Below, piece by piece: positions 1-44,450 of a DNA stretch of 44,450 nucleotides. Within the stretch, counting starts at the first letter, position 1; each line of letters begins with the position of its first letter. Below the pieces are notes generated by a model. The model made no database searches, was not told the DNA's origin, and was given only the letters and a program-made list of their open reading frames with translations. The stretch is from a virus, in IMG/VR virus record IMGVR_UViG_3300011005_000524, positions 1 to 44,450 of that record. One strand, given 5' to 3'. Position numbers and translations under genes: made by a program.

Positions 1-94
1 TGTTCCAGTCCCCGGTGTTCCAGTCCCCGGTGTTCCAGTCCCCGGTGTTCCAGTCCCCGGTGTTCCAGTCCCCGGTGTTCCAGTCCCCGGTGTT
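1..94. repeat. Terminal direct repeat of the contig: 1..94 is identical to 44357..44450 (circular closure or assembly overlap)
   Basis: Both ends read (TGTTCCAGTCCCCGG)x6 + TGTT. Removing one copy joins the two halves of a single minus-strand ORF in frame (421+447-94 = 774 nt = 258 codons). Confidence 0.85.
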
Positions 95-105
95 GCAGCG
101 ACCCG
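1..105. repeat. Tandem 15-bp repeat TGTTCCAGTCCCCGG, 6 perfect units (1-90) plus one degenerate unit (91-105)
   Basis: Read directly. The units are identical at every nucleotide. The unit length equals 5 codons of the minus-strand ORF (AAC ACC GGG GAC TGG = NTGDW). Confidence 0.95.
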
Positions 106-2798: not shown

Positions 2799-2991
2799 GG
2801 TAACGGTTGGTAACGGGGTAGCGGTTGATTCTATACTACTATTTTTTTATATTTTTTTCTTTCACGGGTAAAGATAACCTTTAGAAATATAAAGAAATGA
2901 CAATCAACAGTTACCAACAGTTACCGCTTTATTTTTTCAGATGTTCCAACCGCTACCTTGAACAGTTACCAACAGTTACCCAACAGATACC
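2799..2991. repeat. Element A: GGTAAC/GGTAGC direct repeats (2799, 2809, 2817), an ~85-bp AT-rich core, then 6 inverted GTTACC/GCTACC/GATACC repeats (2910-2991) at ~10-bp spacing
   Basis: Read directly. About 75-80% identical by eye, in the same orientation, to 30762-30952 (element B). Confidence 0.85.
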
Positions 2992-3013
2992 AAAGAAAGG
3001 AAGGTCAAAAAGT

Positions 3014-3460
3014 ATGTTCGGAATCGGAAAAAAGAAAGAAATCAGAAAAGAAGTTGTCGGATCATACATTTCAGGGCTTGACTTCCCTGAAAATGTTGTT
3101 GTCCTTGTCACCCTGACCGGGGAAAAGGTCATGATCAATGCGCCCAGTCTGAAAAAGGAATATTCAATCAACCTTGAACGAGTATTGAACATTTCAGAAT
3201 ACAATGAAACAGAAATTGAAACCGTGATGAAGTCATCTCTTGCAAAAGGTCTGATCGGCGCATCTGCTTTTGGTCTTGTCGGTGCTATCGTAGGAAGTCA
3301 ACCAACTGCAAAGCAGAAGAAAAAAGTGCATTCTTTCTTGTTGATCGAATATGCAGACGGTCAGATTACAATAGCATCTGAAGCACCTTGGACGATCACC
3401 GCACTTGTCAAACAGTTTCGGGAATTAAAGCCGGATGTTCAGCAGCGCATTGAACTTTAA
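3014..3460 (+). CDS. Lysogeny-cassette cargo protein (148 aa) with one glycine-zipper hydrophobic segment; function unknown
   Basis: ORF 2897..3460. The upstream part is translation of the element A repeats. The ATG at 3014 follows AAGGAAGG. Hydrophobic segment GLIGASAFGLVGAIVG. Confidence 0.6.
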   Translation: MFGIGKKKEIRKEVVGSYISGLDFPENVVVLVTLTGEKVMINAPSLKKEYSINLERVLNISEYNETEIETVMKSSLAKGLIGASAFGLVGAIVGSQPTAKQKKKVHSFLLIEYADGQITIASEAPWTITALVKQFRELKPDVQQRIEL

Positions 3461-4822: not shown

Positions 4823-6364
4823 TCACTGTTTGATGAAGGCATCCGGGAAGCCCGATTCCTGAACCTTTTTCAAAAGTGCTTCAGCGTTTTCTTTCTTGCT
4901 GAATGCTCCAACCTGAACATAATACATCACATCAGATTTCTGTTCCTGATGAAACTGATCAAAGAATTTCTGACCAAATGCAGCCCTTTTTGCCTGAACC
5001 GCACCGCCCTGATCCTTTGGCTTTTCATAAGTCATTAGAACGGCATTCGATGCTTCAAGGACTGAAGATGCAGATTTCAGTATTGCAAGCATTGAAGAAT
5101 AGTTTTCACTGATTTCTTTCTTCAGGAAGTCAAGCTGCATATCAAGGTTTCCAATGGATGATTTTTTGCTTTCAGCAAACGCAAGAAACGCCTGTTTCCT
5201 TGTCCAGTATGTCCACTGTGCAAGACCATATCCGGCTGAATCCTTCACAAAGTTTGTATATGATCCGTCATCAACTTTTGCAGTGTACTGTGCATCGGTC
5301 AAACCAAGGGACTTTTCAAAACTGTTCTGAAGGTTGTTTGCAACAAGGGCTGATTCCGCATACAGATTTCCCATAAGTCCTGCAACACCATAATCATTCC
5401 CGATCCATGCAGAAAGATACTTCCATATCTTTTCAGGATCAGCGGTGTCAGTTGCCTGTGTTTCAACTGTCTTTTCGGGTGTCTGTGTTGGTTCGGATGA
5501 AATCGAAGCACCGATTGTTACATATGACGGATTCTGAAGATAAATCCATCCGATACCGCTTTTCAGTTTGCCCCAACCGTCTTTGACTTCCGTGATCGTA
5601 AAGATTCCTTTTCCTGTGTGCTTCCCGGTCAGATTGTTCCCCATGCTTGCGGATGATCTGATGTTCAGATCGTCAATCAGAACCTTGACAGAAAAAGGAA
5701 CTGAAGGGAATGCGCTGACAGATGGTTCAGTCTGTTCAACAGTACCACCAAGCCTTGCAGTCACCTTTTCAGCAAGATCACCCATTCTTGCATACATCCA
5801 ATCACCGGGACAAGACTTATTCGCAAACCATCTGTGAACAGAAAGAACCATTTCATCAGCCTTGGGTTCATAAGCAACAGACTTCTTTGCATCTTCAATC
5901 CAAAGAAGTTTAGTTTTTCCGTATCTTTGGCAAATATCCACACAAAGATCAATCAGACGATTATACACCACTTCTTTGAATGCATAGGGTGAAGCTGCAT
6001 CTGATGCGCATTCAATGGTGATTGCCCTTTGATCATTCATTGCGCCGGAAACACCGTTCACATATATAGGCTTTCCCGTCTTGGGGTCTTTTCCACCGCT
6101 GCACCAAGACCTATTTTTTTCTTCAACATACATTGCAACCCTTCCATCAACACCGATTCCATAGTTGGATGAAGCCTGTCTTGATGTGGGTGCAAAGATG
6201 TTTCCCAAGGTTTCAACCGAACACTGACCCACCACACAATGCGGTGTGATGCGGTCAATATCATGATTCCTCTGACCTGAATTGTTGGGTGACAGTTTGG
6301 TATATACAACCAATGGACTATTCGTGAACTTCTGCGTTGTCATCTTCGTCATCCCCTTTCCCAT
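4823..6364 (-). CDS. Four-domain endolysin: N-acetylmuramoyl-L-alanine amidase (Amidase_2-like), SH3b, tail-lysozyme-like domain and a C-terminal SPOR domain
   Basis: Amidase: IDRITPHCVVG...AITIECASD...CPGDW. SH3-like: VKVLIDDLNIRSSAS...GWGKL. Lysozyme-like: AGLMGNLYAES...GYGLAQWTYWTRK. SPOR-like: YYVQVGAFSKKENAEALLKKV. The start may be the ATG at 6352. Confidence 0.85.
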   Translation of the reverse strand: MGKGMTKMTTQKFTNSPLVVYTKLSPNNSGQRNHDIDRITPHCVVGQCSVETLGNIFAPTSRQASSNYGIGVDGRVAMYVEEKNRSWCSGGKDPKTGKPIYVNGVSGAMNDQRAITIECASDAASPYAFKEVVYNRLIDLCVDICQRYGKTKLLWIEDAKKSVAYEPKADEMVLSVHRWFANKSCPGDWMYARMGDLAEKVTARLGGTVEQTEPSVSAFPSVPFSVKVLIDDLNIRSSASMGNNLTGKHTGKGIFTITEVKDGWGKLKSGIGWIYLQNPSYVTIGASISSEPTQTPEKTVETQATDTADPEKIWKYLSAWIGNDYGVAGLMGNLYAESALVANNLQNSFEKSLGLTDAQYTAKVDDGSYTNFVKDSAGYGLAQWTYWTRKQAFLAFAESKKSSIGNLDMQLDFLKKEISENYSSMLAILKSASSVLEASNAVLMTYEKPKDQGGAVQAKRAAFGQKFFDQFHQEQKSDVMYYVQVGAFSKKENAEALLKKVQESGFPDAFIKQ

Positions 6365-6975: not shown

Positions 6976-7098
6976 TCAGCCCTCTGTGTCTATTCCAAGG
7001 ATTGCGTCAATCTCTTCTTTGAACTGCGGATATTTAGCAATCACTTCATCATAGTCCAGTTTTCCGGCTTTGATTCTCATTGCAAGGTATTTTGCCAT
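6976..7098 (-). CDS. Small 40-aa protein (XkdX-like position between tail fibre and holin)
   Basis: Not in the ORF track (<60 aa). AAAGGGGTGA SD, then ATG; MAKYLAMRIKAGKLDYDEVIAKYPQFKEEIDAILGIDTEG, then TGA. Confidence 0.55.
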   Translation of the reverse strand: MAKYLAMRIKAGKLDYDEVIAKYPQFKEEIDAILGIDTEG

Positions 7099-7117
7099 TT
7101 TGGATCACCCCTTTCCT

Positions 7118-7369
7118 TTACTGATTCATCAACAGGAAATCAACCGCTTCCTGTGTGGACGCAAGACTGTCATTCATCAGGTTGATATATTCATCCTTGT
7201 CATACTGAACAAGATCATATTCCCACCCGGTAACAGGTTCAGATTCACCTTCGATGTCACCGCTTGGCATTTCGACCTCATGAATGTTGGATGCCACCCA
7301 AACGCTGAAATCATCAATTTCATACTGTTCAGGCTGCTTCGATGCTTTGACTGTTCCCCAATCTTTCAT
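7118..7369 (-). CDS. Hypothetical 83-aa acidic protein downstream of the RT (typical post-tail-fibre small gene)
   Basis: AAGGTGA SD 6 nt before the ATG at 7369; overlaps the RT 3' end by 41 nt. Confidence 0.55.
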   Translation of the reverse strand: MKDWGTVKASKQPEQYEIDDFSVWVASNIHEVEMPSGDIEGESEPVTGWEYDLVQYDKDEYINLMNDSLASTQEAVDFLLMNQ

Positions 7370-8534
7370 CTTGTATCACCTTACCTTTCTTTTTTGATTT
7401 AATGTTCTTGGTGTAATATTCATCAGCATAGGGCTGAAGGGGTACAATGTATTTCTGTGTCAATCTGAAACTGTCGCAATGCTTCAACCAACCTTTATAT
7501 GAGTTGATTGAACACCATTCTGAATAGTTCATCTGCATACCATCCTGAACTTTGTTCAGAAGTTTGGTCATTTTCTTTTCCATCTGCAAACAGGTTGATT
7601 TCCTTAAAAGCGTGAAATCTTTGAAAATCCTATAACCTACAAAGTCAACACCACGCACAAATGAAGGGAATATCTGATAATTGTCTTTCAATCGCAAGTT
7701 CAAGTTTTCCTTCAGGTATTCTTCCACATCAGCCAAGACCTGATGCAGCTCTTCTTTGGTTTTTCCAAAAATACAGATGTCATCCATGTATCTGTAATAG
7801 AATTTGATGTGTTTGACCTCTTTCATCCAATGATCAAATTCAGACAAATAATAGTTTCCATCATACTGTGAAAAGTAATTGCCAATGGGAATGCCAACGC
7901 CCTTGATGTATTCATTGCCATCAGAATTTGTGACAATTTCAACATTTTTGCCTTGTGACAGGTAGAAGGCAATGTTTTCATCAGTTGCCGGACAAGTGCT
8001 GATGCTTTCAATGATTTCATCAATCAGTTCAAGAAGTTCAGCATCTTTGTACTTCCGTCTGTATTTTGCCTTCAGAATGTCATGGTCAATGGAAGGATAA
8101 AACTTTCTGCAATCAATCTTGCAGCAGAAAAGCATTTCATCCGGGTGTTCATCGGCTGCCTTTCTTAATTTCTTGAAAGCTGCGTGAATGCCTTTGTTTG
8201 GTATTGCTGAATAGGTGTCATCTGTAAAGAATGCCAACAGTTGCGGTTCAATCACCTGAAGCACCGCCCATTGAACAATCCTATCAGGATAAAACGGCAA
8301 CTTGTATATTTCCCTTTCCTTGTTGCCGTCTTTCTTGGTAAAGGTTGTATATTCTGAAGTGTGAAATTGATGATTCACAAGCATTTCATGAAGTTCATCA
8401 ATGTAATGATCAAGGTTTGCTTCAATCATCTTGACTTCAGCATACCAACCTTTGCCCTTCTTTGCGTGTTTATATGCAAGTTTCAGATTTTCTTTGGAAC
8501 AAATCTTTGCATAAAGATTTCCATGTCGCTTCAC
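7329..8534 (-). CDS. Diversity-generating retroelement reverse transcriptase
   Basis: RT motifs PDRIVQWAV, GIPIGNYFSQYDGNYYL (DGR-type motif 4) and YRYMDDICIF (YMDD). Probable GTG start at 8534 (VKRHGNLYAKI, GGAAG SD). ORF-track start is 8618. The cognate TR is 217 nt upstream. Confidence 0.9.
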   Translation of the reverse strand: MKRHGNLYAKICSKENLKLAYKHAKKGKGWYAEVKMIEANLDHYIDELHEMLVNHQFHTSEYTTFTKKDGNKEREIYKLPFYPDRIVQWAVLQVIEPQLLAFFTDDTYSAIPNKGIHAAFKKLRKAADEHPDEMLFCCKIDCRKFYPSIDHDILKAKYRRKYKDAELLELIDEIIESISTCPATDENIAFYLSQGKNVEIVTNSDGNEYIKGVGIPIGNYFSQYDGNYYLSEFDHWMKEVKHIKFYYRYMDDICIFGKTKEELHQVLADVEEYLKENLNLRLKDNYQIFPSFVRGVDFVGYRIFKDFTLLRKSTCLQMEKKMTKLLNKVQDGMQMNYSEWCSINSYKGWLKHCDSFRLTQKYIVPLQPYADEYYTKNIKSKKKGKVIQDERLGNSQSIEAA

Positions 8535-8590
8535 ATTGTTCTTCCGTACCTCACTGATTATTTTTGTATGCACTAAACTGAACCTTCGAT

Positions 8591-8735
8591 TTGTCACGAA
8601 TGGGTGACAACCTACCAATACAGTTTATGATGTAATTGCCTGAACACTGTTCAGGGCTTATGTGTTTTGCCAAGTGGCATGGTTGCCGGGTTTCAGTATG
8701 ATAAACCCCACCATCTAATGATGACAGTGGGGTTT
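8591..8735 (-). ncRNA. Structured TR-RT spacer (part of the presumed DGR RNA) with three hairpins
   Basis: AAACCCCAC/GTGGGGTTT (8703-8711/8727-8735, 16 nt 3' of TR on the coding strand); CCTGAAC/GTTCAGG (8639-8655); TTGTCAC/GTGACAA (8591-8610). Confidence 0.45.
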
Positions 8736-8751
8736 GGGGTTTATAGGTGCA

Positions 8752-8866
8752 TTTACTGCCTGACTGCTGATATTCCGATTACGATTAGAAGAAACATTAT
8801 TCAGATTCCAATAGAAAGCACTGGCATTCGAAGCATTATTCCAATTCGCTCCAAGTTTAGTGACTT
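8752..8866 (-). repeat. DGR template repeat (TR), 115 bp
   Basis: Aligns without gaps to 9010-9124 (offset 258). All differences fall at TR adenines on the minus strand. Confidence 0.9.
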
Positions 8867-8990
8867 GGTTTTTTACTGCTTTTTGGTTTCTTTGCTTACT
8901 ATGAACCGCTTTCAGTTGTGCAATCGTCATCTGTATAAGCATACCGACAACCTATATTCAAATGTTGGTGTAGTTTCTTTCTATGCTACA

Positions 8991-10724
8991 TTATGCTGCC
9001 GCTTTACGGTACACCGCCCGACCGCCGATACTCCGATAACGATAAGAAGAAACATCATCCAGATACCAATAGAAAGCACCGGCACTCGAAGCATTAGTCC
9101 AATCCGCCCCAAGCCTAGCGACCGTCCAAGCCTGTGCGACATTCTGCCAAAAGTAATCTGAAACAGGAAGGGCATCTGAACCAAGCACTTCACCGGGAAC
9201 AAACAACCAATCAAATTCTTCCACATAGACAAATGCGGAAACATAGCCGTTTGCATTGATGCAAGTGATGCCTGTGTCGGTATATCCTGAAGCCGTATCA
9301 TCAGCAAAATCATGATCCTTGATGTAGATTTTGCCATAATTGATGTTGATACCATCAAACCAAGTCCATATGTTGCCCCAAAAGTTTTCTTCACCACGAT
9401 ACGAAACAAGTTCAACATTTGAAGGCTTGCGGATTGCACCTGACTTGTTACCAAGGGGTGAAGTTGCCCCGGTGTTCTCACTCATGTTGGTTGAACCGTC
9501 ATCAGTCTTGTCAACATTGCCCCTTCCAATAGCTGCTTGCATATTGAAGGATGCATATTCAACAAGCATAAGCATCTGCGACATTGTAACGGTCTGAACA
9601 AGCGACTGTGACCATCCTGTTCCACGCTTTGCAGCAATAGCCCTGAATCCGGCTCTTGTTGCTCCGGTTTGTGACAGTCCTGACATTGGCTTTGCATTGG
9701 CAATGGATGCAATCTTGTCATTAGCAAAGTCAACTGTTTGTGCATCATTGGTGATATATGCAGAAGCCGAAACATCATAACTTGTTGCTTCATAGGCTGA
9801 AACATATACCTTTTCAAGTTCAGCACCGTTCATCTTGAATGCCGGATGAAGTTTGAAGCCTGTCTTTGCCGTATCAGATACATAATATCTTGCCTTGCGA
9901 AGAAGAACACGGCTTCCAACAGTTTCAGTTTCAAGGGGAACAACCTTGTAATAGAACTTTGGCTGCTCAACCATGACCTGACCATTTGAGCCATCTTCAG
10001 TATAGCCCTGATCACCTTCATAAGCATTGACTGTTCCATCATCAGCAAGATTGCATCTTCTTCTGCCACCAAAAGCATTGATGCCGTCAAAATCCGTTCC
10101 CGGCTGCTTGTTTACTGCACCACCAAGCCTTGTGAACTTCTTGTTTCTGAAATCGACTTCAACACCATAGATGTCATAGTCATCATTGTAGTTCACAAAA
10201 GCCTTCAGGTTTGCAATGTCTGCTTCAGTTGTATCAACCCTGTCAGCAAGTGCATCAAACATTGTGACAGTGACAAGTGCAGCCGGATCAACAACAAGTG
10301 TGACATCCTCACTGTTGGAAACATAGGTTGTCATGTTGATAATAGCACCTGAAACAGTTGTACCGCTGAACGGGGGCATATAGCAGTTGCCTGTGGTTTC
10401 AATGCAAGCTGCATATAAGATTTCACCTTCATCCGGGTCAGTTGCATACAAACCAAGGGTTCGCATATAGTAGCCTTCAGCAAGATCAGCATTGCTGAAG
10501 GCGGTGCTTACCTTCACACCAACCTGATTTATGATCTCTTTTTCTGCAATGTCACTTGACTGTTTTTCAGTCAGGGATGTCAGGCTTTCAAGGTCTGTGA
10601 TTTCATGTTCATCATCTGAAGCCACAATCCTTGTGAAGTCATACTCGGTTGCAGTTCCGGCAATGATCTTTGCAATCAATGCCTGTCCTTTTGCAGTAGT
10701 AATAAGTTTTGAATACTCTGCCAT
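8991..10724 (-). CDS. Tail fibre / receptor-binding protein, the DGR target (VR in the last ~40 codons)
   Basis: N-terminus MAEYSKLITTAKGQALIAKIIAGT...RTLGLYATDP resembles the tail-collar fibre N-domain. C-terminus ...ARLGADWTNASSAGAFYWYLDDVSSYRYRSIGGRAVYRKAAA carries the VR. Confidence 0.85.
   Translation of the reverse strand: MAEYSKLITTAKGQALIAKIIAGTATEYDFTRIVASDDEHEITDLESLTSLTEKQSSDIAEKEIINQVGVKVSTAFSNADLAEGYYMRTLGLYATDPDEGEILYAACIETTGNCYMPPFSGTTVSGAIINMTTYVSNSEDVTLVVDPAALVTVTMFDALADRVDTTEADIANLKAFVNYNDDYDIYGVEVDFRNKKFTRLGGAVNKQPGTDFDGINAFGGRRRCNLADDGTVNAYEGDQGYTEDGSNGQVMVEQPKFYYKVVPLETETVGSRVLLRKARYYVSDTAKTGFKLHPAFKMNGAELEKVYVSAYEATSYDVSASAYITNDAQTVDFANDKIASIANAKPMSGLSQTGATRAGFRAIAAKRGTGWSQSLVQTVTMSQMLMLVEYASFNMQAAIGRGNVDKTDDGSTNMSENTGATSPLGNKSGAIRKPSNVELVSYRGEENFWGNIWTWFDGININYGKIYIKDHDFADDTASGYTDTGITCINANGYVSAFVYVEEFDWLFVPGEVLGSDALPVSDYFWQNVAQAWTVARLGADWTNASSAGAFYWYLDDVSSYRYRSIGGRAVYRKAAA
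9010..9124 (-). repeat. DGR variable repeat (VR), 115 bp, inside the 3' end of the tail-fibre gene
   Basis: About 20 substitutions relative to TR. Each is at a plus-strand T in TR (an A on the coding strand). Confidence 0.9.
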
Positions 10725-10727
10725 TTT

Positions 10728-11438
10728 TTATACCTCGCTTTCTGTTTTAGTTATCTCTGTAACGGTCATCACGACCGAAACATTTGAACTTCCTTTGATT
10801 TCGTTGCTTTCTCTAAAATCAGGTGTTACCTGAAGCGTTTGAACATCTGAAATCAAATTTGCAATATTAGCATCACCCCTGATATTGTTGTTTTCCTTAA
10901 AGTCAGGACTAATGTTGTCAAGATCAACACAACTGATTGCATTACCGACATAATAACCACCTTCTACATCCACCTTGAAAATATTTCGTGCGTCCAAAAC
11001 AATGTTGCAAGGTGTCATTGTGTTGATAATCCGTTCAAGTTCTTCCACCTGACCATACAATTCAAGGTCTGTCAGAAGGGTCAGGGTGTACCCTTCTGAA
11101 AAGTTGTCTGTCAGTGTGAAATCCGTGTCACACAAAACTTCTAACTTCTGCAAAAGCACCTTCAGGGTGTATGGTATTTTGTTGAACCACCTTGAACGCA
11201 CCCTTGAACGCCTTGATTCAAGTGTATCTTCCACACTTGGATAAATACCAAGCATTTGTTCATATCTTGATATGCCGTATTCATCAGCCGTTTCAATGAA
11301 CCTGTTCTTTAACACCTGATTAGCTGCTATCCAAACAAGTTCAAATTCAGGGTTTTCTGCTTCCAGTGCTGCAACGGGTTCTTTATATTCCTTCATGAAC
11401 TGTGGCAAGTATGAAACAAGGTCAACTTCTCTGATCAT
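10728..11438 (-). CDS. Baseplate/tail-fibre-attachment protein (XkdU / DUF2313-like)
   Basis: LPQFMKEYKEPVAALEAENPEFELVW...SRRSRVRSRWFNKIPYT pattern; positioned after the baseplate J gene. Confidence 0.65.
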   Translation of the reverse strand: MIREVDLVSYLPQFMKEYKEPVAALEAENPEFELVWIAANQVLKNRFIETADEYGISRYEQMLGIYPSVEDTLESRRSRVRSRWFNKIPYTLKVLLQKLEVLCDTDFTLTDNFSEGYTLTLLTDLELYGQVEELERIINTMTPCNIVLDARNIFKVDVEGGYYVGNAISCVDLDNISPDFKENNNIRGDANIANLISDVQTLQVTPDFRESNEIKGSSNVSVVMTVTEITKTESEV

Positions 11439-41680: not shown

Positions 41681-42052
41681 TCAAAATTCTTTTCTGCTGC
41701 CGTTGTTCCTCACCGCCTTTCTTTTGATTGTTCTTTTGCGCTTGCAAAGTCCTGTGTCCCATGCGTGTTGGGTGTTTTCCGCAATCGTACACCATTCAAG
41801 TTGTGAAGCCCGACAATCATGTTTCTTGCCTTTCTTGTGGTTCACAACGGGCTTGTTATCAGGATTTGGAACAAAAGCAACCGCAACCAATATGTGCAAT
41901 CTGCAATTATCACGATCCAATTTCACCCGAAGATAACCGTTGCCGTCATCATAAGGCTGAAGCAGTTTCCCGGTCTGAATGTTCCTGACATTTCCCAAGC
42001 TGCTGACCTCATATCTTGGGTGATCTTCAATTACTTTCCACCGTTCTTTCAT
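41681..42052 (-). CDS. HNH homing-type endonuclease (NUMOD4 plus HNH_3-like)
   Basis: WKVIEDHPRYEVSSLGNVRN...GYLRVKL...HILVAVAFV...VNHKKGKKHDCRASQLEW. Confidence 0.8.
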   Translation of the reverse strand: MKERWKVIEDHPRYEVSSLGNVRNIQTGKLLQPYDDGNGYLRVKLDRDNCRLHILVAVAFVPNPDNKPVVNHKKGKKHDCRASQLEWCTIAENTQHAWDTGLCKRKRTIKRKAVRNNGSRKEF

Positions 42053-44007: not shown

Positions 44008-44450
44008 TCTATCTTTATCCCCGTTATTTCTTCAAAGATTTCCTTGTCAAAGTTCGGGATTGCTCGGATGATATCTTTCTGATGCTCTGTCAGATCGTCC
44101 CACCAAATTTGACCGCATTCAGATTCAGCCAAAACTTTCAGATAACCGCCCGTTGTTTCGTGTTCAGGATGTTCAGCCTTTTCTTCACCAGTCATACGAT
44201 CTGACCATACCCATTCAAGAACATTCTTCGGAATCTGATTCAGAAGGTATCTTGCATCTGAATTTAACCAATCCCTATATGTCCATTCAGAAGGCTGATT
44301 GAACATCATGATCTTTGGTTCAACAGTATTGAAGCATCCGTTGTTGAAGGAAGATTTGTTCCAGTCCCCGGTGTTCCAGTCCCCGGTGTTCCAGTCCCCG
44401 GTGTTCCAGTCCCCGGTGTTCCAGTCCCCGGTGTTCCAGTCCCCGGTGTT
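44004..44450 (-). CDS. Early repeat protein, 3' part (NTGDW repeats then the C-terminal domain); same gene as 1..421
   Basis: The frame is open from the window end: (NTGDW)nNKSSFNNGCFNTVEPKIMMFNQPSEWTYRDWLNSDARYLL... The ORF track reports only 44004..44309, starting at an internal Met. Confidence 0.75.
   Translation of the reverse strand, partial: NTGDWNTGDWNTGDWNTGDWNTGDWNTGDWNKSSFNNGCFNTVEPKIMMFNQPSEWTYRDWLNSDARYLLNQIPKNVLEWVWSDRMTGEEKAEHPEHETTGGYLKVLAESECGQIWWDDLTEHQKDIIRAIPNFDKEIFEEITGIKIE
44357..44450. repeat. Tandem 15-bp repeat (6 units + TGTT), identical to 1..94
   Basis: Read directly. Confidence 0.95.

Follow-up and report, generated by a model that had tools for sequence, protein, structure and literature searches.

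A tail-fibre diversity-generating retroelement without a detected accessory gene, and the conserved structured RNA between its template repeat and reverse transcriptase

The stretch of viral DNA analysed here, positions 1 to 44,450 of IMG/VR record IMGVR_UViG_3300011005_000524 (44,450 nt, the window below), carries a diversity-generating retroelement (DGR) on its minus strand. In the direction of transcription, a tail-fibre gene with the variable repeat (VR) is followed by a 143-nt gap, the template repeat (TR), a 217-nt structured spacer and a reverse transcriptase (RT) gene. A sequence-only reading of the window had proposed that this element rewrites the tip of the fibre by adenine-specific mutagenic retrohoming, as defined for Bordetella phage BPP-1. 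Our analysis favors, with a probability of about 0.9, a functional accessory-free DGR in a temperate contractile-tailed phage of Bacillota that rewrites the tail-fibre tip. The features that define the locus are the following.

8991..10724, minus strand: target tail fibre, 577 aa, with a tail-collar fibre domain at the N-terminus and a predicted C-type-lectin-like receptor-binding domain in the C-terminal ~280 aa
9010..9124, minus strand: VR, codons ~534-572 of the 577-codon fibre open reading frame (ORF)
8985..8999, minus strand: imperfect palindrome GCAGCA-TAA-TGTAGC around the fibre stop codon, with one stem mismatch
8752..8866, minus strand: TR, with 37 adenines, ten AAT codons and 18 codons able to vary
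7329..8534, minus strand: DGR reverse transcriptase, 401 aa, GTG start; Pfam RVT_1, PDB match 8ub7, PHROG 1423

Programmed comparison of TR (8752-8866) with VR (9010-9124) reproduced the gap-free alignment over 115 nt at the constant offset of 258 that had been read from the sequence. The mismatches number 22; the earlier count of about 20 is obtained when the last two positions are dropped. The claim that every mismatch is a plus-strand T in TR, that is, a coding-strand adenine, held on re-alignment for 22 of 22, and none of the 78 non-adenine positions of TR differs from VR. The chance that 22 random sites would all fall on the 37 adenines of 115 nt is ~4e-14. From TR to VR the changes comprise 16 A>G, 4 A>T and 2 A>C. 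A repeat finder independently returned the pair 8755-8864 and 9013-9122 at 84% identity, and a scan of both strands with the TR adenines as wildcards found no further VR copy in the window. The earlier translations of both repeats were correct, as was the placement of VR in the final ~40 codons of the fibre. The changed adenines had been assigned to AAY and AGY codons, which is true of nine AAT and three AGY codons among the 18 that change and not of the rest (ACT, AAA, GGA, CAG, GCA and GTA). Three of the 18 codon changes are synonymous. The 18 variable codons give a TR-permitted repertoire of ~10^17 protein variants, and a stop codon can be reached from only one TR codon, AAA.

The RT ORF is intact, with neither a stop nor a frameshift, and contains the IGNYFSQ and YMDD motifs. 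Its start is likely the GTG at 8534, the choice also made by gene callers for an identical 401-aa protein on ENA contig NODE_119; given this start, the TR-to-RT distance agrees with the 217 nt noted earlier. Pfam assigned only the general RVT_1 domain. When the protein was compared with all PDB sequences, 8ub7_A was the best match by a wide margin (E 4e-28), with group II and 'retron-type' RTs at E 1e-11 to 1e-13. This chain is the Bordetella phage RT, bRT, because its residue numbering agrees with the published one: I181 and Q187 of IGSLTSQ and D215/D216 of YMDD are published bRT residues. The window RT keeps the DGR signature [I/V/L]GxxxSQ together with the equivalents of bRT R74 and I181, the pair with a demonstrated role in promoting adenine mutagenesis. 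NCBIfam scores lay far below their cut-offs (group II TIGR04416, 105 bits against 300; retron_St85, 45 against 235; Drt3a, 49 against 200), and the closest solved relative is bRT, which speaks against placing the protein with retron, group II or Abi RTs. An Rfam search of the window returned no group II intron RNA and no retron RNA, PADLOC detected only generic RT homology (RT 131 bits, RT_UG17 108 bits), and the neighbours of the RT gene are tail and lysis genes.

Along its entire length the fibre aligns with PHROG 5302 'tail protein' (E 8e-149), and it has a weak match to Pfam Phage_tail_fib; its gene comes after baseplate J and Mu gp48-like genes. No sequence-level match to any PDB chain was obtained for it, nor a Pfam match to FGE-sulfatase or DUF1566. 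An AlphaFold2 model of residues 300-577, computed with 38 homologues in the alignment, had a pLDDT of 84.8 and a pTM of 0.85. When this model was compared with the PDB by Foldseek, TaqVP (5vf4) was the best match (E 2.7e-8, probability 1.0), followed by five BPP-1 Mtd variants, formylglycine-generating enzymes (FGE) and TvpA. Among predicted viral structures, many gut-phage 'tail collar fiber' proteins matched with TM-scores of 0.8-0.93, some of them from crAss-like phages that also have a related RT. The suggestion that the fibre C-terminus be checked for a C-type-lectin fold was thus borne out at the level of the predicted structure, and the model supports the view that the region holding VR has the C-type-lectin fold of DGR variable proteins.

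A palindrome of the form GCTGCA-TAA-TG(Y)(R)GC recurs 10-30 nt past VR in relatives of the locus (L004, L013, L029, L026, L012), where it holds the fibre stop codon in some and lies in non-coding DNA in others. Its stem is perfect in L004, L013 and L029, and in L029 it stands outside the coding region. By analogy, the palindrome at the fibre stop codon of the window may be a counterpart of the target-recognition hairpin that flanks VR in BPP-1.

Relatives of the RT in metagenomes number in the thousands. We assembled a family set of 28 IMG/VR loci and several Logan/ENA loci, with RT identities of 47-92%. Wherever the upstream region is on the contig, these relatives share one layout, namely fibre with VR, 110-190 nt, TR, a spacer of 160-280 nt and RT, with no gene between. 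In 27 distinct TR/VR pairs (the window and 26 loci) there are 678 A-to-N mismatches against 21 at non-adenine positions; the former divide into 459 A>G, 124 A>T and 95 A>C (68%, 18% and 14%). The A>G bias could stem from selection (AAT to GAT, AGT or GGT) or from a different error spectrum of this RT lineage. Among the RTs of GenBank phages, the nearest belongs to Psychrobacillus phage Perkons (46.8% identity), and those of crAss-like phages are 36-43% identical; megablast of window positions 7000-11000 against GenBank phages gave no match.

Activity of the element was judged by comparing assemblies of related contigs. Over 4.2 kb, the contig L037 shares 98.3% identity with the window and has a TR without any difference (115/115), and its VR departs from that of the window at 11 positions, all 11 of which are TR-adenine sites, with 62 differences elsewhere in ~4,000 nt. 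In the IMG/VR contig L001/L009, whose background is ~88% identical, TR is again identical to that of the window (115/115) and VR differs at 21 positions, 19 of them TR-adenine sites. The fibre falls into a 90%-identity cluster of three sequences, which differ mostly in VR. Exact-pattern scans in which each TR adenine was replaced by N returned only one IMG/VR contig (also present as a JGI contig) and one metagenome-assembled genome (MAG); VR variants closer than these were reached by protein look-ups. A TR that is frozen in drifting DNA, accompanied by change in VR at TR-adenine sites, is the expected product of a working DGR, and this pattern, as read from the assembled contigs, indicates recent DGR activity.

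Several components known from BPP-1 were searched for in the window. No match to the Avd family PF05635 was found in the 38 scanned ORFs, and of the small ORFs of the window without an assignment, none is basic at the size of Avd (110-130 aa), the sole basic one (2897-3460) encoding 187 aa within the lysogeny module. No gene fits between VR, TR and RT, the VR-TR gap being 143 nt of non-coding DNA, and no accessory gene of any of the four kinds considered (Avd, HRDC, MSL, CH1) was detected for the window DGR. An accessory gene of one of these kinds is found in ~70% of DGRs and is not universal. In a curated set, 75 of 372 DGRs had no accessory gene, a profile search found no avd elsewhere in those genomes, and Avd-independent homing was proposed for them (Wu et al. 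2018, PMC5758913); a full-text search of a literature library found no later paper on how Avd-less DGRs work. A GC-rich initiation of mutagenic homing block (IMH/IMH*) shared by TR and VR was likewise not found, the similarity of the two repeats stopping at a helix, P0, that is described below. A promoter scan gave 7 sites against 10.6 in shuffled controls, with no convincing promoter for a TR RNA. We also considered a 75-aa basic ORF that runs through TR (8715-8942) as a substitute for Avd and dropped it, as conservation extends neither to its start codon nor to its upstream part.

What the locus does have between TR and RT is a conserved structured RNA, whose elements are listed here along with the strands in or upstream of TR that pair with it; MFE denotes minimum free energy.

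8564..8684, minus strand: match to Rfam RT-17 (RF03020) over the full model length, 36.1 bits, E 3e-5
8638-8657, minus strand: inserted hairpin of RT-17 (GCCCUGAACAGUGUUCAGGC), a 20-nt perfect hairpin; insertion in the RT-17 match, 32 nt
8668-8679, minus strand: RT-17 hairpin 1, UGCC-ACUU-GGCA, abutted by the PU 3' strand
8703..8735, minus strand: hairpin after TR, a G+C-rich stem followed by UUUAU, from the MFE fold and a terminator-like scan
8747..8752, minus strand: P0 5' strand, AUGCAC, starting at the last base shared by TR and VR
8568-8573, minus strand: P0 3' strand, GUGCAU, followed by conserved ACAAAAA at 8561-8567; predicted primer strand and priming site
8944..8952, minus strand: PU 5' strand, GGTTGTCGG, ~88 nt upstream of TR, from RNAalifold on a plain MAFFT alignment
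8681..8689, minus strand: PU 3' strand, CCGGCAACC, next to RT-17 hairpin 1

Three approaches recovered helix P0: an unbiased helix search, RNAalifold applied to the plain alignment, where no pair was broken, and MFE folding of the single sequence (z = -3.3). Across 20 distinct sequences, 93% of its cells are paired, compared with 9-54% when the partner is slid, and double changes occur in five of its eight pairs. The position of the helix relative to the mutagenized region is fixed: the last A-to-N mismatch in the window (8753) is the base directly 5' of P0, and the distance from the last adenine mismatch to the first P0 nucleotide is 0-2 nt in 20 of 20 distinct loci, in all of which CAUAC is invariant as well. 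The second helix, PU, pairs GGUUGUCGG (8952-8944) with CCGGCAACC (8689-8681). Seven of its nine pairs show compensatory changes, with 98% of cells paired, and the unbiased search regained it in most of 29 distinct loci, L003 and the distant group of the L014 type among them; L020, L023 and L027 gave only weak matches of 6-7 bp at inconsistent positions. Since PU crosses P0, the RNA is pseudoknotted, and the strands of the two helices account for the conserved unpaired ends of the Rfam RT-17 model. The hairpin that follows TR keeps its structure in the family while its stem sequence varies (alignment columns 336-344 pair with 358-366, with compensatory changes in relatives).

At the same position, the RT-17 model reaches its gathering score in 7 of 20 related loci (40.4-64.3 bits), and we treat the window spacer as a diverged member of this family. 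Its sub-threshold score is due to the 32-nt hairpin insertion, which is conserved in L004, L006, L010 and L003 and absent from other relatives. Weinberg et al. 2017 (PMC5737381) placed the motif RT-10 in the BPP-1 spacer, and a role of the other RT motifs as DGR parts was speculation only. A further complementarity was observed within the locus, in which 12 bp, including G-U pairs, join 8843-8857 (TR +10 to +21) with ~8470-8481 (RT codons ~20-23). This match between TR and the RT ORF occurs only in the closest relatives and is not separable from shared ancestry.

These features can be assembled into a mechanism, which we infer from the comparative evidence. An RNA extending from at least 8952 to ~8561 would be transcribed; its source is probably the late tail operon, as no convincing promoter was found. 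In this RNA, AUGCAC directly 3' of TR would pair with GUGCAU in front of the conserved ACAAAA to form P0, the upstream block would pair with the spacer to form PU, and the two helices would cross. P0 would then form a template:primer duplex within a single RNA molecule, comparable to TR117-129:Sp47-56 in BPP-1. The complementary DNA (cDNA) would be primed in cis by the U or A that ends the P0 primer strand on its 3' side and would begin at A8753, and TR would be copied in the 5' direction, the RT misincorporating opposite adenines, mostly by insertion of dC opposite A to give A>G. The cDNA would finally replace VR by homology-dependent retrohoming and alter up to 18 codons of the fibre tip; such changes are proposed to alter receptor specificity. 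As no Avd was detected, the RNA scaffold and the longer RT presumably do the positioning job of Avd. In its strongest form, the proposal gives the RT-17 RNA the part of a self-priming scaffold in a large lineage of Avd-independent DGRs, in which the PU/P0 pseudoknot sets the template end in the RT active site and the RT with ~390 nt of RNA makes a complete two-component adenine mutagenesis engine. We offer this tentatively, as a possibility somewhat short of an even chance.

Two further small genes lie next to the RT gene.

7118-7369, minus strand: acidic 83-aa ORF, pI 4.1, phrog_18126, overlapping the RT stop by 41 nt
6976-7098, minus strand: 40-aa ORF, phrog_8908, after the 83-aa ORF

Both are kept after RT and before the holin gene in related loci, and they are probably ordinary small genes of the fibre-to-lysis interval, with a role in the DGR less probable. 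The 83-aa ORF was also considered as a CH1 accessory and dropped, as CH1 proteins are 160-169 aa long (PMC5758913) and the ORF resembles the usual small genes between fibre and holin.

Elsewhere the window encodes an integrase, repressors, a terminase, the portal-to-tail genes, a holin and an endolysin. A gene for a homing-type endonuclease with NUMOD4 and HNH_3 domains (41681-42052, minus strand) stands amid replication and early genes. The two ends of the window (1-98 and 44357-44450) consist of ~6.5 copies of the same 15-nt tandem repeat, TGTTCCAGTCCCCGG, which on the minus strand encodes PGTGT repeats, and are identical over 94 nt. Probably the assembly is circular, or else terminally redundant, and its break point lies within a gene that contains the repeats, which makes the copy number of the tandem repeat uncertain. 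One relative of the DGR locus, L003, is located in an Oscillospiraceae MAG (JAZAUD010000100.1, ~4850-5230, minus strand). Its VR fits a window-type TR (GCTTCGAGTGCCGGTGCTTTC, GTTTCTTCT) better than its own TR, to which it has 10 non-adenine mismatches, and its fibre runs ~25 codons past VR. This suggests that the TR-RT cassette of L003 was swapped, or that its VR has not been rewritten since a swap.

Three other explanations of the locus deserve weighing against that of a functional accessory-free DGR. If the repeats had arisen simply by duplication of the fibre 3' end and later divergence, next to a retron, group II or defence RT, one would expect RT matches of the kind that PADLOC returned with its generic defence profiles and NCBIfam with its group II model. 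The latter score, like the other two, is far under its cut-off, and the closest solved relative is bRT, the signature is IGxxxSQ and not QGxxxSP, and neither of the corresponding RNAs was found by Rfam. Above all, the confinement of all 22 mismatches to TR adenines, a pattern repeated in 27 related pairs, already refutes such a duplication unless the spectrum is an assembly artefact, and we regard it as scarcely credible. A recently inactivated relic, in which the TR/VR pattern records past activity of an element now dead in the window genome, would accommodate the finding of one and the same VR in four contigs, the palindrome mismatch downstream of VR that relatives do not have, and the RT-17 score brought below threshold by the 32-nt insertion. 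It is difficult to reconcile with an RT ORF that retains all catalytic and signature residues, with a TR that is 100% conserved in backgrounds diverged by 1.7% and 12%, and with P0, PU and RT-17 helices that are intact in the window; the insertion is itself a conserved hairpin common to four relatives. We therefore consider a dead element improbable. A somewhat better, though still unlikely, alternative is a real DGR that relies on a highly divergent Avd, or on some other accessory factor, whose gene lies elsewhere in the phage genome or in the host, with the spacer RNA playing the same role as in BPP-1. Several small ORFs of the window have no family assignment, and the acidic 83-aa ORF is kept beside RT in L004, L006 and L008. 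Against a hidden Avd stand the absence of any PF05635 match or unassigned basic ORF of 110-130 aa among those scanned, the pI of the 83-aa protein (4.1, compared with ~9.5 for Avd), the accessory-free DGRs in whose genomes no avd was found elsewhere (Wu et al., PMC5758913), and the lack of a gene between VR, TR and RT in 28 of 28 related viral loci.

Some observations weigh against the functional accessory-free DGR and the RNA model attached to it. The VR of the window was found in four contigs from at least two sources (ENA and JGI), which implies that turnover is too slow to make every assembly different and that a variant can persist. A highly divergent or host-encoded Avd could escape a Pfam search. 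The RT-17 score of the window (36.1 bits) is below the gathering score of 40.4, and P0 in the window is only 6 bp long. In loci with several ATG triplets the P0 anchor was picked by best pairing, a choice of which the unbiased search and RNAalifold are independent. For a duplex resembling cPRT-stop, in which sequence upstream of TR would pair with the part of the spacer lying 3' of the priming site, no consistent partner was found across the loci.

As a phage feature a DGR is routine: tens of thousands have been catalogued, many of them on the tail fibres of gut phages, and such elements explain how gut phages keep pace with changes of the host surface. The present element belongs to a very common gut-phage lineage, of which it is an unremarkable example, and both its accessory-free architecture and its tail-fibre target are already catalogued; what is distinctive is that no Avd was detected and that a conserved structured RNA lies between TR and RT. 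The mode of reverse transcription in the DGRs that lack Avd, roughly one quarter of the total, is a question raised by Wu et al. 2018 (PMC5758913), and the locus and its relatives make it testable by offering an explicit, covariation-backed RNA model with a predicted cDNA start. Should the RT and its RNA work alone, this two-component system would be a simpler chassis than BPP-1 bRT-Avd for targeted-mutagenesis tools in E. coli.

The closest comparison is with BPP-1 itself (mtd-VR, avd, TR, Sp, brt). In both systems sequence flows from TR to VR in an adenine-specific way, the recipient being the final ~40 codons of a receptor-binding tail-fibre protein whose fold, predicted here, is that of C-type lectins, and both use a homologous RT (E 4e-28) that has IGxxxSQ and YMDD as well as residues equivalent to R74 and I181. 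In both, a non-coding spacer separates TR from RT, one spacer strand pairs with the sequence directly 3' of the first reverse-transcribed nucleotide, and a second duplex joins sequence upstream of TR to the spacer. The BPP-1 template:primer duplex is formed by TR117-129 with Sp47-56, synthesis starts at TR G117, and P0 as predicted has the same geometry. The outcome claimed by the sequence-only reading, adenine-specific mutagenic retrohoming, is supported, but the qualification 'as defined for BPP-1' does not hold throughout. The window has no detectable avd, with a 143-nt non-coding VR-TR gap in its place, and no 14-bp GC-rich IMH/IMH* pair, homology ending instead at the predicted cDNA start. 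Its spacer belongs with RT-17, whereas that of BPP-1 carries RT-10, and the RNA is wired differently: the upstream:spacer duplex of the window lies 5' of the primer strand, so that the helices cross into a pseudoknot, whereas the avd:Sp and TR:Sp duplexes of BPP-1 are nested. The upstream strand of this duplex is ~88 nt from TR in the window and within 20 nt in BPP-1. The window RT is ~70 aa longer than bRT, and 68% of the adenine substitutions in the window family are A>G, whereas for bRT(-Avd) in vitro the most frequent misincorporation is of dATP, which would read as A>T.

Among catalogued elements, the locus corresponds to Architecture A1 (target-TR-RT) of Wu et al. 2018 (PMC5758913), with the same gene order and no avd, HRDC, MSL or CH1; that survey did not describe a structure for the spacer RNA. 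It also resembles the phage-borne DGR clades 1, 4 and 6 (Roux et al. 2021, PMC8144416), which belong to gut-associated phages of Firmicutes and Bacteroidetes, target tail proteins, have a C-type-lectin VR, and were seen to be active in metagenomes. As in TaqVP (PDB 5vf4), Mtd and TvpA, VR occupies the C-terminal end of a lectin-like domain in the fibre model, but sequence identity to these proteins is 10-14% and the TM-scores are only 0.35-0.55. Finally, the spacer agrees with RF03020 RT-17 (Weinberg et al. 2017, PMC5737381) in lying directly upstream of an RT gene and in matching the whole model with both hairpins. The published description of RF03020 gives no function, and RT-10 is the only motif which that paper ties to a DGR; the RT-17 match of the locus described here lies in the spacer that separates TR from the RT of a DGR.

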